The translations under genes were made by a program, and so were the position numbers. A stretch of DNA of 64,000 nt, taken from NCBI GenBank assembly GCA_963749075.1, contig CAVVLJ010000016.1, forward strand, positions 256,001 through 320,000. Direction: 5' to 3'. Source of the DNA: an uncultured Pseudomonadota bacterium. Lineage in GTDB: Bacteria > Pseudomonadota > Alphaproteobacteria > JACZXZ01. The notes under the pieces were generated by a model, which was not told the DNA's origin, searched no databases, and saw only the letters and a program-made list of their open reading frames with translations. This document shows positions 653 through 6,962 of this stretch, piece by piece (positions within the stretch are counted from its first letter, which is position 1; each line of letters opens with the position of its first letter).

Positions 653-2053
653 ATGGATGTCTATCCCCTCTTTCTCAAGATTGCCGGCCGGCCCTGCCTT
701 CTTGTCGGCGGCGGTGCCGCGGCCGAGCGCAAGGCCGAGCTCCTGATGCGCGCGGGGGCGAGGCTCACCATCGTTGCCGAGCGCTTGACGCCGGGGCTCG
801 CCCGCGCGGCCGGGGCGGGGCGACTGCGGCATCTCGCGGCGCCGCTTGGCCCTGAGCAGTTCCGTGGCCAGGCCCTGGTCGTGGTGGCAAGCGAGGACGA
901 GGCGCTCGCGCGAGAGGCCTCGGTGCTCGCGCATGGCGCCGGCGTGCCGGTCAATGTGGTCGACCGGCCGGAGCTTTCCACGTGCATTGCCGGTGCCGTT
1001 GTCGACCGCTCGCCCGTGCTCGTCGCGATCACCACGGGCGGTGCGGCGCCCGTGCTGGCGCGCGAGCTGCGCCTTGCCATCGAGCGCTTGCTGCCGCCGT
1101 CGCTCGGCCGGCTCGCCGCCTTCGCCGAGCGCTTCCGTGCCGCCGCCAAGGCAGCGCTCCCGAGCCCGCGCGCGCGCCGGCGCTTCTGGGAGCGCTTCTT
1201 CGCAAGCGCTCTCGCCAAGGCCGTGCTGGCGGGCGACGAGGCCGGCGCGCAGGCCGCCATGGTGGCCCGCGTCAACCGCGGCGAGATGCGCGGGGAGGAT
1301 GTCGGGATCGTCCATCTCGTGGGCGCCGGACCGGGCGATCCCGAGCTCTTGACGCTGCGCGCCCATCGCCTGCTCGCCGAGGCGGATACGATCGTCTATG
1401 ACCGCCTCGTCGATCCGGCCGTGCTCGAGCTTGGCCGCCGCGACGCCGAGCGCATCCATGTCGGCAAGGCGGCGGGCCGCCACAGCCTCAGCCAGGACGA
1501 GATCAACGCGCTCCTCGCGCGCCTCGCCTCCCAAGGCAAGCGCGTGGTGCGGCTCAAGGGCGGCGATCCCTTCGTCTTTGGCCGCGGCGGCGAGGAGCTC
1601 GAGGCGCTGCGCGCGCGCGGCATCGCGGTTGCGGTGGTGCCGGGCGTCACTGCGGCTCTCGGCTGCGCTGCCGCCGCCGAGATCCCGCTCACCTACCGCG
1701 GACTCGCGAGCGCCGTCACCTTCGTCACCGCCTCCCAGCGCGACGGCGGCGAGCTCGATTGGGCGGCGCTCGCCCGCCTGCCGGGCACGCTCGCCATCTA
1801 TATGGGCGTCTCCCAGGCAGAGAGGATCGCGGAGCGCCTCGTCGCCCACGGCCGCCGCCCCGCGACGCCGGTCGCACTCGTCGAGAACGGCACGCGGCAG
1901 GGGGAGCGCGTCATCGTAGGAAAGCTCGGCGAGCTCGCCGCACTCGTCGAGGCGCACGGCATCGGCGCTCCGGCGCTCATCGTCGTGGGCGAGGTGGTGC
2001 GCTTGGCCAAGCCGGCAGCGCTCCCCGCCTTGCCGCTCGCGGCCAGCGCCTGA
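653..2053 (+). CDS. cysG: Siroheme synthase
   Basis: N-terminal dehydrogenase/ferrochelatase (LLVGGG, VNVVDRP) plus methyltransferase motifs (LVGAGPGDPELLT, RLKGGDPFVFGRGGEE). Confidence 0.95.
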   Translation: MDVYPLFLKIAGRPCLLVGGGAAAERKAELLMRAGARLTIVAERLTPGLARAAGAGRLRHLAAPLGPEQFRGQALVVVASEDEALAREASVLAHGAGVPVNVVDRPELSTCIAGAVVDRSPVLVAITTGGAAPVLARELRLAIERLLPPSLGRLAAFAERFRAAAKAALPSPRARRRFWERFFASALAKAVLAGDEAGAQAAMVARVNRGEMRGEDVGIVHLVGAGPGDPELLTLRAHRLLAEADTIVYDRLVDPAVLELGRRDAERIHVGKAAGRHSLSQDEINALLARLASQGKRVVRLKGGDPFVFGRGGEELEALRARGIAVAVVPGVTAALGCAAAAEIPLTYRGLASAVTFVTASQRDGGELDWAALARLPGTLAIYMGVSQAERIAERLVAHGRRPATPVALVENGTRQGERVIVGKLGELAALVEAHGIGAPALIVVGEVVRLAKPAALPALPLAASA

Positions 2054-4023: not shown

Positions 4024-4549
4024 GGCGGGCAAGCTGGCGGACGATCCCTGGCGCCTCCTCGCCGACGACGAGGCAGCGCCCGCCGAGGGGCCCATCGTCG
4101 TCGGCCTCGAGCGCTTCAGGCGCGAGCAGAACGCGCTTCTCGCCCGCGAGGGCCCGCTCGGCATCCGCCTCAAGGCGGGCCAGCACCCGCGAGCGATCGC
4201 CGAGAACGTGCAGCGCTTCGCCCTCATCGCACTCGAGTTCGCCAAATTCACCGACGGGCGCGCCTATTCCTACGCGCGGACTTTGCGCGAGCGCTACGGC
4301 TACCGCGGCGAGCTGCGCGCCGTGGGCCATGTCCTGCGCGACCAGCTTCTCTTCATGCAGCGCTGCGGCTTCGATTCTTTCGAGCTCGCGCGCGCCGACG
4401 CCGCCGAGGCTTTCGCCAAGGCGCTCGCCGAGTTGAGCGTGTGGTACCAGCCGGCGGCGGACGGGCGCGCGACGGCCGAAACGCTCCGGCGATCTCCCTC
4501 TCCTCCTTTAGGAGGAGAGGGTCGGGGTGAGGAGGCGCGCCCGCGCTAA
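4010..4549 (+). CDS. DUF934 family protein
   Basis: 'FAKFTDGRAYSYAR...ELRAVGHVLRDQLLFMQRCGFDSF'; start overlaps cysI 3' end. Confidence 0.9.
   Translation: MPLIKAGKLADDPWRLLADDEAAPAEGPIVVGLERFRREQNALLAREGPLGIRLKAGQHPRAIAENVQRFALIALEFAKFTDGRAYSYARTLRERYGYRGELRAVGHVLRDQLLFMQRCGFDSFELARADAAEAFAKALAELSVWYQPAADGRATAETLRRSPSPPLGGEGRGEEARPR
4496..4532. repeat. Alphaproteobacterial palindromic repeat within the DUF934 3' coding end
   Basis: CCCTCTCCTCCT-TT-AGGAGGAGAGGG (12-bp arms) followed by TCGGGGTGAGG. Confidence 0.75.
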
Positions 4550-4920
4550 GCCGCGGAGCGCGTCTCATAGCGTTGCACCAGCACCTCGGCCGGAATCTGC
4601 AAGAGCTCGCTCAGGGCGCGGACCATGGGCAAGGTCAGCGGGCGTCTGCGGTTGAGGATTTCCGACACGCGCCCGCGGCTGCCGATCGCCGGCTCGAGAT
4701 CGCGGCGGGAGAGCCCCTTCTGCTCCATCATGAACTCGACCGCCGCGATCGGGTCAGGCGGGGCGATCGGAAAATGCTCGGCCTCGTAGGCCTCGATGAG
4801 GGTGACCAGCACGTCCGCGCGGTCGCCCTCCGGCGTGCCCGGCTCGGCATCCCAAAAGCGCTCGGCTTCCTTGAGAGCGGCACGGTGGTCGGCCTTCGTC
4901 CTGATGGGACGGATTTCCAT
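4546..4920 (-). CDS. higA: HigA-like HTH antitoxin / transcriptional regulator
   Basis: 'IRPIRT..DH..AL...LVTLIEAYE...PDPI.AVEFMMEQKGL...IGSRGRVSEILNRRRPLTL'. Confidence 0.85.
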   Translation of the reverse strand: MEIRPIRTKADHRAALKEAERFWDAEPGTPEGDRADVLVTLIEAYEAEHFPIAPPDPIAAVEFMMEQKGLSRRDLEPAIGSRGRVSEILNRRRPLTLPMVRALSELLQIPAEVLVQRYETRSAA

Positions 4921-4932
4921 GACGAGCGCTCC

Positions 4933-4974
4933 TCACACTCTCTTCGCGTCGACTCAATCGTATTCCCTGTGGGA
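4933..4974 (-). pseudogene. 3' remnant of HigB toxin gene
   Basis: Translates SHREYD*VDAKRV*, resembling the HigB C-terminus (THxEYDxIDAxxV), directly upstream of higA. Confidence 0.65.
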
Positions 4975-4988
4975 GACACACGCGCGTG

Positions 4989-5017
4989 TTGACAGAGGAA
5001 AATCATAGCGATAACCT
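4989..5017 (+). promoter_or_regulatory. sigma70 promoter of riboswitch-rhodanese-metZ transcript
   Basis: TTGACA-N17-TAACCT; inferred start near 5024, just before aptamer 1. Confidence 0.75.
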
Positions 5018-5024
5018 GCGCTCA

Positions 5025-5076
5025 TCGCGCCGATTTGAGTTCAGCTTGCGGGCGCGGAAAAAATGCCGCTAAAGCG
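5025..5076 (+). ncRNA. SAM-II (SAM-alpha) riboswitch aptamer 1
   Basis: P1 CGCGCC(5026-31)/GGCGCG(5051-56), loop GATTTG...GCTTGC, A-rich linker, CGCTAAAG; upstream of metZ. Confidence 0.8.
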
Positions 5077-5084
5077 ACGGGACG

Positions 5085-5119
5085 ACCGCCCGGCGGCAGC
5101 GCTGCGGCGGTTTTTTGTT
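5085..5119 (+). terminator. Candidate intrinsic terminator between the two aptamers
   Basis: ACCGCC/GGCGGT stem followed by TTTTTGTT. Confidence 0.6.
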
Positions 5120-5145
5120 GGGCCTGGTCCGGGCCGTGTCCGGAC

Positions 5146-5221
5146 CCGCGGGATTTGACGGGCAGCTTGCGCCGCGTGTTCCACCGCTAAAGCGCCACGG
5201 GGATGACCTCCGTGGGCCCGT
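5146..5221 (+). ncRNA. SAM-II riboswitch aptamer 2 (long-loop type)
   Basis: P1 CGCGG/CCGCG, GATTTG...GCTTGC, CGCTAAAG, inserted hairpin 5195-5215, ACGGGC(5158-63)/GCCCGT(5216-21) pairing. Confidence 0.7.
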
Positions 5222-5248
5222 GTAACCCAAGTGAAGGAGGGCATCCGC

Positions 5249-5317
5249 ATGTCTCCGCTGCTCCATACTCCGCAATACCCGTCTCAGTCTCCTCTCGCGG
5301 GGAGGGCCGTGCGATGA
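5249..5317 (+). CDS. Putative 22-aa leader uORF (MSPLLHTPQYPSQSPLAGRAVR)
   Basis: Strong SD GAAGGAGG 8 nt upstream; stop overlaps rhodanese start (ATGA). Confidence 0.45.
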   Translation: MSPLLHTPQYPSQSPLAGRAVR

Positions 5318-5739
5318 GCGGAGAGGCTTACGCCGGCGACGTCGACGCACTCCGCGCCTGGGAGATCCTCAAGGACGATGCGAAGGCGGTCCTGGTCGAC
5401 GTGCGCACCAGGCCCGAGTGCCGCTACGTCGGCCATCCCGACTTGAAGGCGCTCGGCCGCGAGCCGGTCTTCGTCGAGTGGCAGGCCTATCCCGACCTCG
5501 CGCACAACCAGCGCTTTGCCGACGAGCTCGCCGAGAAGGGCGTCGCCAAGGACGCGACACTCCTCCTCCTCTGCCGCTCGGGCGGGCGCTCCAAGTCCGC
5601 GGCCATCCTCCTGACCAAGCTCGGCTACCGCTGCTGCTACAACGTGGCCGACGGCTTCGAGGGGGCCAAGGACGGCCAAGGCCACCGCGGCGTCAGCGGC
5701 GGCTGGAAGGCCGCGGGCCTGCCCTGGCAGCAGGACTGA
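5314..5739 (+). CDS. Rhodanese-like sulfurtransferase
   Basis: LVDVRT, active-site loop LCRSGGRS, NVADGFEG, GWKAAGLPW. Confidence 0.9.
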   Translation: MSGEAYAGDVDALRAWEILKDDAKAVLVDVRTRPECRYVGHPDLKALGREPVFVEWQAYPDLAHNQRFADELAEKGVAKDATLLLLCRSGGRSKSAAILLTKLGYRCCYNVADGFEGAKDGQGHRGVSGGWKAAGLPWQQD

Positions 5740-5756
5740 GCCCGGGGGGCACCACG

Positions 5757-6962
5757 ATGGCAAAGGGCAAGAAGAGCGTCGCGGACGCCTGGCGTCCTCA
5801 GACGCGGCTCGTGCGCGGCGGCACGGTCCGCTCCGGCCACGGCGAGACGAGCGAGGCGATCTTCCTCACCTCGGGATTCGTCTACGAGAGCGCCGAGGAG
5901 GCCGAGGCGCGATTTAAGGGCGAGGCGCCGGGCTTCATCTATTCGCGCTATGGCAATCCCACGGTCGCCATGTTCGAGAAGCGCATGGCGCTCCTCGAAG
6001 GGGCCGAGGCCTGTTTTGCCACGGCGACCGGCATGGCGGCGGTCTTCGCCTCGCTCATGTGCCAGCTCCGTGCCGGCCAGCGCGTGGTGGCGGCGCGCGC
6101 ACTCTTCGGCTCGTGCCACTTCATCATCACCCAGCTCCTGCCGCGCTGGGGTATTGAGACCGAGCTCGTCGACGGGCCCGACTTAGCACAGTGGCGGGCG
6201 GCGCTGGCACCGGGTGCTGCGGCGGTGTTCTTCGAGACGCCGGCCAATCCGACGCTCGAGCTCATCGACATCGCCGCGGTCGCCAAGCTCGCCCATGCCG
6301 CGGGTGCGGTGGTCATCGTCGACAACGTGTTCTCGACGCCGGTGCTGCAGCGCCCGCTGCCGCTCGGCGCCGACATCGTCGTCTATTCCGCGACCAAGCA
6401 CATCGACGGGCAGGGCAGGGCGCTCGGCGGCGCCATCCTCTCGAGCGACAAGTTCTACCGCGAGCAGCTCATGCCCTTCATGCGCCACACCGGGCCGGCC
6501 TTGAGCCCGTTCAACGCCTGGATCATGCTCAAGGGCCTCGAGACGCTGGGGCCGCGCGTCGAGCGCCACGCGCAGAACGCCCGCAAAGTGGCCGACTTCC
6601 TGGCCGGCGAGAAGGCCGTCGCCCGGGTGCTCTATCCCGGCCACAAGAGCCATCCGCAATACCGCCTGGCGCGGCGCCAGATGGCCGGGCCCGGCACCAT
6701 GGTGAGCTTCGAGCTCAAGGCCGGCAAGACGGGCGCCTTCCGCTTCCTCAATGCGCTCGAGGTCATCGACATCTCGAACAACCTGGGCGACGCCAAGTCG
6801 CTCGTCACCCATCCGGCGACCACGACGCACCGCGCCGTGGGTGCCGAGGAGCGCGCCCGCATGGGCATCGGGGACGGGCTGGTGCGCCTCTCGGTCGGGC
6901 TCGAGGACGCGGACGACTTGATCGACGACCTCGCGCGCGGCCTCAAGGCGGCGGGGCGCTGA
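5757..6962 (+). CDS. metZ: O-succinylhomoserine sulfhydrylase
   Basis: GETSEAIFLTSGFVY, YSRYGNPT, PLP lysine motif YSATKHIDGQGR, ISNNLGDAKSL. Confidence 0.92.
   Translation: MAKGKKSVADAWRPQTRLVRGGTVRSGHGETSEAIFLTSGFVYESAEEAEARFKGEAPGFIYSRYGNPTVAMFEKRMALLEGAEACFATATGMAAVFASLMCQLRAGQRVVAARALFGSCHFIITQLLPRWGIETELVDGPDLAQWRAALAPGAAAVFFETPANPTLELIDIAAVAKLAHAAGAVVIVDNVFSTPVLQRPLPLGADIVVYSATKHIDGQGRALGGAILSSDKFYREQLMPFMRHTGPALSPFNAWIMLKGLETLGPRVERHAQNARKVADFLAGEKAVARVLYPGHKSHPQYRLARRQMAGPGTMVSFELKAGKTGAFRFLNALEVIDISNNLGDAKSLVTHPATTTHRAVGAEERARMGIGDGLVRLSVGLEDADDLIDDLARGLKAAGR

Follow-up and report, generated by a model that had tools for sequence, protein, structure and literature searches.

The 64,000-nucleotide stretch of DNA analysed here (called the window below; positions 256,001 to 320,000 of contig CAVVLJ010000016.1, our contig C16, in the 5.49 Mb, 23-contig genome of an uncultured Pseudomonadota bacterium) contains a leader with two SAM-II aptamers in tandem, upstream of a rhodanese gene and of metZ. 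The two aptamers, an intrinsic terminator and alternative pairings with covariation are present in this leader. The reading that we favour, with a probability of roughly 0.7, is that two independent SAM-II riboswitches stand in series and that both would lower rhodanese-metZ expression when S-adenosylmethionine (SAM) is high. From their motifs, both aptamers are expected to bind SAM. The direction of the second switch, and the translational coupling between a short upstream open reading frame (uORF) and the rhodanese gene, are what we infer from structure models. The tandem layout itself is of a published and common kind, of which this leader is a further example.

Aptamer 1 was the sole match in the window to reach a gathering threshold of Rfam. 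RF00521 (SAM_alpha) aligned over its full length (model positions 1–79) with positions 5017–5092, scoring 39.1 bits for a gathering value of 36. The P1 helix has 6 bp (5026–5031 with 5051–5056), the loop contains GAUUUG and CAGCUUGCG, and the 3′ strand of the pseudoknot is GCCGCUAAAGCGA (5065–5077), in which AAGC at 5072–5075 is complementary to GCUU at 5044–5047. All the features by which a SAM-II element is recognised are found: P1, an H-type pseudoknot, and the motifs GAUUUG, GCUUGC and CUAAAG. The SAM-II long-loop model RF01726 aligned with aptamer 1 only, at 16.0 bits (E 2.5, gathering 44). A match to Bp2_287, a Burkholderia small RNA (sRNA) candidate, lay antisense to aptamer 1 (5028–5109, minus strand); with 22.3 bits it was far below the gathering value of 70 and was treated as a chance match. 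The Bp2_287 model seems to hold a SAM-II element in reverse complement; most likely, then, the match mirrors the riboswitch and does not represent a gene. The remaining low Rfam rows between 4900 and 5400 were far below gathering and were also taken as chance.

A GC-rich stem followed by UUUUUU at 5111–5116 makes up the intrinsic terminator, for which the terminator scan reported an inner stem at 5093–5105 and then GGCGGTTTTT. Folded alone, this hairpin reached −19.6 kcal/mol, and it is also part of the minimum free energy (MFE) structure of the full-length leader. Three terminator-like sites were counted in the region 4700–5600, compared to 0.7 ± 0.8 in shuffled sequences. The strand UGCCGCU at 5064–5070 is complementary to GGCGGCA at 5092–5098 over seven pairs, one of them G–U, and the MFE structure of the nascent RNA 5024–5100 consists of P1 and of this antiterminator pairing. 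In the relatives UAAAG directly follows the strand, written UGC[N]GCU, and the terminator segment paired with this strand varies with N: GGCGGCA where N is C, as in the window, AGCCGCA where N is G (e.g., L032) and AGCUGCG where N is A (e.g., L040). Over 48 distinct aptamer–terminator pairs the duplex energy was −9.97 kcal/mol for own pairs and −8.51 kcal/mol for cross-pairs of different N, and none of 1000 permutations matched the own-pair value, relatedness being known to inflate such tests. The expected pentamer was present in 6/6 cases for N = C (GCGGC), in 10/19 for N = A (GCTGC) and in 13/23 for N = G (GCCGC), a table that is supportive and not clean, as GCGGC is frequent in the other N classes too.

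Judged by its motifs and its score, aptamer 2 is a SAM-II-like variant and not a member of RF00521 at the curated threshold. The RF00521 match covered 5138–5210 with 21.6 bits (E 0.012), short of the gathering value of 36; a permissive Rfam search of 4900–5400 (501 nt) returned 6 rows at E ≤ 10, with no SAM_V match among them. P1 pairs 5147–5151 with 5172–5176, the loop contains GAUUUGACGGGCAGCUUGCG, and the 3′ strand of the pseudoknot is CCGCUAAAGCG (5184–5194), with GCUU at 5165–5168 facing AAGC at 5190–5193. The two aptamers define two types. In type A the linker is A-rich and the terminator follows directly; in type B a hairpin, P0, precedes the aptamer, and a CCACGG...CCGUGG hairpin, P3, and then GCCC follow it. 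In 64 distinct type-B homologues P1 is paired in 100%, 7 of them having CG in place of GC, and GAUUUG, CAGCUUGC and GCUAAAGCG vary little or not at all. The sub-threshold score would suit a decayed duplicate that has lost SAM binding, leaving aptamer 1 as the sole regulator. We consider this extremely unlikely: the low score is due to the inserted hairpin and the linker that is not A-rich, the core motifs being intact; the core is invariant, and P0, P1 and P3 covary over the 64 distinct sequences, which come from many lineages; and the same aptamer type stands alone before cysG at two loci (L019, L020), where P0 is also seen.

The named type-B structure (P0, P1, the GCUU:AAGC helix P2b, the distal helix and P3) was tested on the 64 aligned sequences. 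Paired cells amounted to 88.8%, compared to 23.6–47.1% when the partners were slid by 1–3 columns. The covariation score was 0.106, compared to at most 0.060 for slid partners and 0.064 ± 0.004 for shuffled ones, and 0/500 shuffles reached it. In P0, 49 sequences have GC at pair 12/31 and 12 have AU. P3, in which CCACGGGG (5195–5202) pairs with CCUCCGUG (5208–5215), is 99% paired with both-sided changes at 3 pairs. The distal helix joins the loop bases ACGGGC at 5158–5163 to GCCCGU at 5216–5221 and is part of the MFE structure; its flanking positions covary, pair 47/123 being CG in 19 sequences, GC in 7, UA in 4, UG in 6 and GU in 3. P2b is invariant in type B, so covariation is silent on it. 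The canonical register of helix P2a is a bulged A and then GGC:GCC, as in aptamer 1 and in the Rfam consensus. Its formation is at the expense of the distal helix and of two pairs at the base of P3; in aptamer 2 it consists of the invariant GGC:GCC only, while the alternative partner that covaries lies after the inserted hairpin. In addition, UUGGG at 5118–5122, after the U-tract, can pair with CCCAA at 5226–5230 and enclose aptamer 2 in read-through transcripts, a pairing weakly kept in relatives.

An anti-Shine-Dalgarno (anti-SD) sequence, GGAUGACCUCC, lies in the loop and the 3′ strand of P3 and is complementary to GGAGGGCAUCC at 5236–5246, which overlaps the Shine-Dalgarno (SD) sequence; the duplex was computed at −18.5 kcal/mol. 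This match is lineage-specific: the P3 loops of other lineages differ, with matching changes downstream of the SD. Over 44 distinct units the anti-SD:SD duplex had −12.75 kcal/mol for own pairs and −9.91 kcal/mol for cross-pairs, and 0/1000 permutations reached the own value. In the folding models, P3 and the anti-SD:SD duplex are mutually exclusive alternative structures. For the tail of the window leader folded alone, the P3 fold had −23.5 kcal/mol and the anti-SD fold −21.2 kcal/mol, values close to each other, and with 5184–5196 blocked the anti-SD:SD fold became the predicted MFE structure. The Kiloniellaceae loci L054, L074 and L083 have a longer P3 and, downstream of the SD and ahead of the start codon, a second UUCCACG, a copy of the motif in the 5′ strand; with this wiring the 3′ strand of P3 could pair directly with the ribosome-binding site.

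We propose the following model. A single leader RNA, starting near 5024, would carry both switches. Without SAM, 5064–5070 would pair with 5092–5098 once these are made, and the terminator would be blocked; with SAM bound, the pseudoknot would hold 5064–5070, the terminator would form at 5085–5116 and transcription would stop. The second switch would act on the translation of the transcripts that read through. Without SAM, the anti-SD would be hidden by P3, itself stacked on the distal helix, and the SD left free. With SAM, the canonical pseudoknot would pair the loop GGC (5161–5163) with the tail GCC (5194–5196), so that the distal helix would be lost together with the base of P3, and the anti-SD would be released onto the SD. 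The SD would drive the 22-codon uORF, and coupling to the rhodanese gene would operate through the overlapping ATGA and through the rhodanese SD, which is predicted to pair with uORF sequence.

A number of results weigh against this model. The full-length leader favours the terminator thermodynamically even without a mimic of SAM binding (−40.1 kcal/mol, compared to −33.2 kcal/mol with the antiterminator enforced), which means that the first switch must be kinetic, as is usual for such switches. The type-B copies of five same-genus genomes scored only 19.6–20.2 bits with RF00521, below gathering. The proximal GGC:GCC pairing never varies, and covariation is thus uninformative about it. The predicted accessibility of the window SD was 0.40, 0.38 and 0.35 in three modelled states, with no SAM-dependent change. 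Of 57 units surveyed for SD accessibility, 54 had a distal strand, and the means over these, 0.32 when free, 0.47 with the distal strand blocked and 0.30 with the proximal strand blocked, are equivocal; the distal strand was mis-assigned in an L040-like group. The automated three-state modelling was dropped as support, given this mis-assignment and its failure to discriminate ON from OFF. In the beta-proteobacterial tandems L038 and L066 the proximal pairing is unavailable and the anti-SD:SD duplex is seemingly far stronger than the insert hairpin, which makes them a poor fit to the same model of the second switch. A search for public RNA runs turned up none covering 4900–6000. Finally, the distal helix, P2b and P3 are able to coexist in one fold, which would point to an ON switch.

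According to that alternative, aptamer 2 would be a SAM-ON translational switch in which a bound three-way junction of P2b, P3 and distal P2a locks the anti-SD and frees the SD; behind the SAM-OFF terminator, it would restrict expression to an intermediate band of SAM concentration. The covarying distal helix forms, with P2b and P3, a nested fold that is the unconstrained MFE structure, and by inspection the distal strand is the sole good P2a partner in L038 and L066. With the distal strand blocked, predicted SD accessibility rose by more than 0.2 in 16 of the 54 units and fell in 2, partly as an artefact of the strand assignment. However, in the window P3 and the distal helix are already the stabler structure without ligand, so such a switch would be constitutively on and the anti-SD:SD duplex would have no role. 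Placed after an OFF switch, an ON switch would also leave the operon nearly silent, and metZ, cysG and the ORF (open reading frame) with a PAPS-reductase domain belong to pathways repressed by their end product. We therefore regard a SAM-ON aptamer 2 as unlikely, and prefer the OFF direction because blocking 5184–5196 flips the MFE and because the genes behind type-B units should be repressed by SAM. A broader claim would make aptamer 2 a distinct SAM-II subtype, with P0, the inserted hairpin and a distal P2a, that is missed by the Rfam threshold; in its boldest form the subtype is SAM-ON and the leader a natural band-pass filter for a single ligand, which we hold to be very unlikely.

It is also conceivable that aptamer 2 binds SAM and acts mainly otherwise than on the SD, through Rho-dependent termination in an untranslated uORF region or through the stability of the messenger RNA. 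The hardly changing SD accessibility in simple models goes in this direction, as does the work of Scheuer et al. 2022 (PMC9373788), which in its accessible part describes both stabilisation of riboswitch RNA and distant control of translation. Against it, the P3 loop and 3′ strand match the SD and the bases after it in each lineage's own sequence, which would hardly be expected if the helix did not form and matter, and we find this explanation improbable.

In the favoured model of two OFF switches in series, the SD controlled by aptamer 2 belongs to the 22-codon ORF starting at 5249 and not to the rhodanese gene. A uORF of 17–30 codons with an ATGA overlap with the rhodanese start was found in 6/6 genomes of the genus (the window and L003–L007). 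In genome G008, from one further genus of the family, the uORF (locus L009) is 19 codons long, with 5 nt between its stop and the rhodanese ATG; in all, a uORF ends on the rhodanese start or 5 nt before it in 7/7 tandem rhodanese loci. The encoded peptides show little conservation. In 5/5 leaders folded (the window, three of the same genus, and G008) the rhodanese SD region had a predicted unpaired probability of 0.12–0.29, a low accessibility due to predicted pairing with uORF sequence: in the window, GGGGAGG (approximately 5299–5305; region 5291–5306) would pair with CCUCUC within the uORF. This suggests that translation of the uORF opens the ribosome-binding site of the rhodanese gene in the modelled fold, and that ribosomes would re-initiate there.

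The distribution of the leader was investigated by a DNA search with positions 4989–5330 over 41 genomes, of which 15 matched, the source genome included. The full tandem leader was present in 5/5 same-genus genomes, as confirmed by motif scan and by reading; in G008 both halves of the leader are on one contig, and G038 has two full copies. In the source genome a motif scan revealed no further SAM-II core, and RF00521 matched once at E ≤ 1; an additional match to the SAM-II regular expression on contig C20 was without a fold and was rejected. Type A stands alone before the rhodanese gene in the sister genus (L010, L011) and before metZ in G007 (L023). The genes downstream of type-B units are metZ, cysG and an ORF with a PAPS-reductase domain, all of them sulfur or methionine genes, which fits the logic of a SAM-OFF switch. 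In 185,579 species genomes, a pattern scan for a SAM-II 5′ motif lying 50–80 nt downstream of a 3′ motif gave at least 119 loci, and at least 62 of them (62/119 among the matches listed) contain a tandem of two complete SAM-II cores, no two of these tandems having the same sequence. Among the matches listed, a T-run follows the first aptamer in 59/62 tandem loci and also the second in 4/62, and a tail with P3 and GCCC follows the second in 39/62; the other 57/119 have no second complete core by the regular expression and mix chance matches with variants. The listed taxa are metagenome-assembled genomes of Alphaproteobacteria, Dongiaceae, Kiloniellaceae, Rhodospirillaceae, Nisaea, Fodinicurvata, Aquibaculum, Pelagibius, Hwanghaeella and some Betaproteobacteria. 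As far as sequence patterns tell, doublets with the terminator first and the ribosome-binding site second are frequent among these matches in Rhodospirillales-like Alphaproteobacteria, and occur in some Betaproteobacteria.

Several downstream contexts were also recorded. In the Dongiaceae-like records L051, L063 and L108 (region 760–930 of L108) the tandem riboswitch is followed by an ORF of 56–57 codons with a conserved C-terminus, ...SPVCAA[R/G]WAY, and next by the ORF with a PAPS-reductase domain. The 56-codon ORF of L108 had no Pfam match, and the conserved end may reflect overlap with another reading frame. In L015 (G026), near 1476 on the minus strand, a type-B-like aptamer tail precedes MVCLMCPCSHRR, a Cys- and Met-rich ORF of 12 codons, which might be either a leader peptide or a chance ORF. 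In L008 (G038; 931–1467, minus strand), and also in L115 and L080, tandem or type-B leaders precede an OsmC-related protein (NCBIfam NF041052, 77.4 bits, under the cut-off of 95) and not a methionine gene.

The elements of the leader and the neighbouring genes are collected in Table 1. The position of TTGACA and TAACCT agrees with the SAM-II promoters of Corbino et al. 2005, which in the part of that work available to us lie a few nucleotides before P1, and transcription probably starts a few nucleotides before P1, near 5024. TTGAC of the −35 box is kept in 9/9 aligned leaders, and a consensus scan reported no sigma-70-like promoter at its threshold; the promoter assignment is drawn from sequence and conservation. 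The original prediction, made from the sequence of the window, had described a promoter, two aptamers, a terminator with its antiterminator and a 9-bp hairpin before rhodanese-metZ. All these elements are present, at or near the positions it gave. Its aptamer 1 (5025–5076) is shifted by one base and lies above the RF00521 gathering value, and its hairpin and U-tract (5085–5119) is the intrinsic terminator. The antiterminator that it drew, TGCCGCT (5064–5070) with GGCGGCA, is the MFE pairing of the nascent RNA and has the support of covariation, while RNAfold reproduced the hairpin at 5126–5146. The motifs it saw in both aptamers, GATTTG, GCTTGCG and CGCTAAAGCG, were found again, and the Pfam and NCBIfam matches bear out the downstream genes, metZ being above both cut-offs (TIGR01325, 581.7 bits for 510.05; NF006003, 528.3 bits for 522). 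Its other claims held in part: the TTGACA box exists and is conserved, though not called by the consensus scan; aptamer 2, placed at 5146–5221, does end at 5221, only provided that P3 and the distal strand are counted in; and the two expected non-overlapping matches to SAM-II models were obtained at E ≤ 0.012, with one alone passing the Rfam threshold.

Table 1. Elements of the tandem SAM-II leader and adjacent genes, in window coordinates.
Feature	Position	Strand	Description
HTH_3 gene, divergent	4546–4920	−	Upstream of the leader
Putative promoter	4989–5017	+	−35 TTGACA 4989–4994, 17-nt spacer, −10-like TAACCT 5012–5017
SAM-II aptamer 1 (type A)	5026–5077	+	Rfam RF00521 (SAM_alpha), 39.1 bits
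Antiterminator	5064–5098	+	UGCCGCU 5064–5070 with GGCGGCA 5092–5098
Intrinsic terminator	5085–5116	+	GC-rich stem 5085–5111, UUUUUU 5111–5116
P0 hairpin, 9 bp	5126–5146	+	Abuts P1 of aptamer 2; RNAfold
SAM-II aptamer 2 core (type B)	5147–5194	+	RF00521, 21.6 bits, below gathering
P3 hairpin inserted in the 3′ tail	5195–5215	+	CCACGGGG (5195–5202) with CCUCCGUG (5208–5215)
Anti-Shine-Dalgarno	5201–5211	+	P3 loop and 3′ strand, GGAUGACCUCC
Distal strand GCCCGU	5216–5221	+	Pairs with loop ACGGGC 5158–5163; in MFE structure
Shine-Dalgarno AAGGAGG and following bases	5234–5246	+	Shine-Dalgarno proper 5234–5240
Upstream ORF, 22 codons	5249–5317	+	MSPLLHTPQYPSQSPLAGRAVR; TGA stop overlaps rhodanese ATG as ATGA
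Rhodanese-domain protein, 141 amino acids	5314–5739	+	Pfam PF00581, E 3.3e-08
metZ, O-succinylhomoserine sulfhydrylase, 401 amino acids	5757–6962	+	PF01053, E 5.8e-133

The idea of a two-level switch, also part of the original prediction, is supported by the modelled folds, the alternative pairings and their covariation. Its view of the arrangement as new was not upheld: the at least 62 tandem loci make such an arrangement already common, and Sherlock et al. 2022 (RNA Biol 19:1059; PMC9481103) report 44 tandem SAM-II riboswitches, where the prediction had taken the SAM-II/SAM-II pair to be undescribed. According to the accessible text of that paper, some of the 44 have a terminator first and control of the ribosome-binding site second, and some have two terminators. 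The present leader has the same composition (two SAM-II elements in one leader, a terminator and then ribosome-binding-site control, sulfur and methionine genes), and what is described there shows no difference in kind. The features of a bi-mechanism tandem in the sense of Sherlock et al. are seen at the sequence level: a covarying antiterminator with a terminator, and then a covarying anti-SD:SD pairing. The prediction had also held SAM-II to be usually single and translational; this is contradicted by Corbino et al. 2005, where, in the part seen, many representatives carry putative intrinsic terminators.

Two other systems are close. The SAM-II/SAM-V tandem of 'Candidatus Pelagibacter ubique' (Poiata et al. 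2009, as cited in PMC9481103) likewise has a terminator-coupled SAM-II first and a translational SAM sensor second. It differs in the second sensor, which here is SAM-II-like (a SAM_alpha match, and no SAM_V match among the 6 rows), and in the position of the SD, which lies inside the pseudoknot in Pelagibacter and here approximately 40 nt downstream of the pseudoknot strand, under the proposed control of an anti-SD hairpin. In S. meliloti, following the available portion of PMC9373788, the SAM-II element of metZ is predicted to terminate transcription and give the sRNA RZ, the level of which rose under high SAM; riboswitch RNAs were stabilised under high SAM and translation was controlled at a distance. 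At metA, an upstream ribosome-binding site embedded in the riboswitch activates translation further downstream (PMC9373788; Microlife 2026, PMC13285730, as far as the accessible text goes). Thus S. meliloti shares with the window a SAM-II with a terminator upstream of metZ, and at metA an upstream ribosome-binding site driving downstream translation; its aptamers are single and at two separate genes, whereas here two stand in series, with a discrete uORF ending on the next start. Word searches of the literature found no paper linking a SAM-II riboswitch with rhodanese, and for SAM-II with an anti-SD only the S. meliloti work on the upstream ribosome-binding site. The accessible part of PMC12452182 treats the SAM families together, with nothing specific on SAM-II doublets. 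The architecture of P0, P3 and distal helix, together with the uORF relay, was not found described by word searches, and the 44 examples of Sherlock et al. may include it.

The leader adds little that is new to the doublets with terminator first and ribosome-binding site second, as these were already published in 2022. Type B scores approximately 20 bits with SAM_alpha, and routine annotation therefore sees one riboswitch of the two and under-counts the doublets. The comparative data define the type-B platform, P3 versus anti-SD:SD with the distal helix, well enough for clean mutational tests. In this genus, the ribosome-binding site under control would be that of a short uORF coupled to the first gene, a relay similar in spirit to that of metA in S. 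meliloti.

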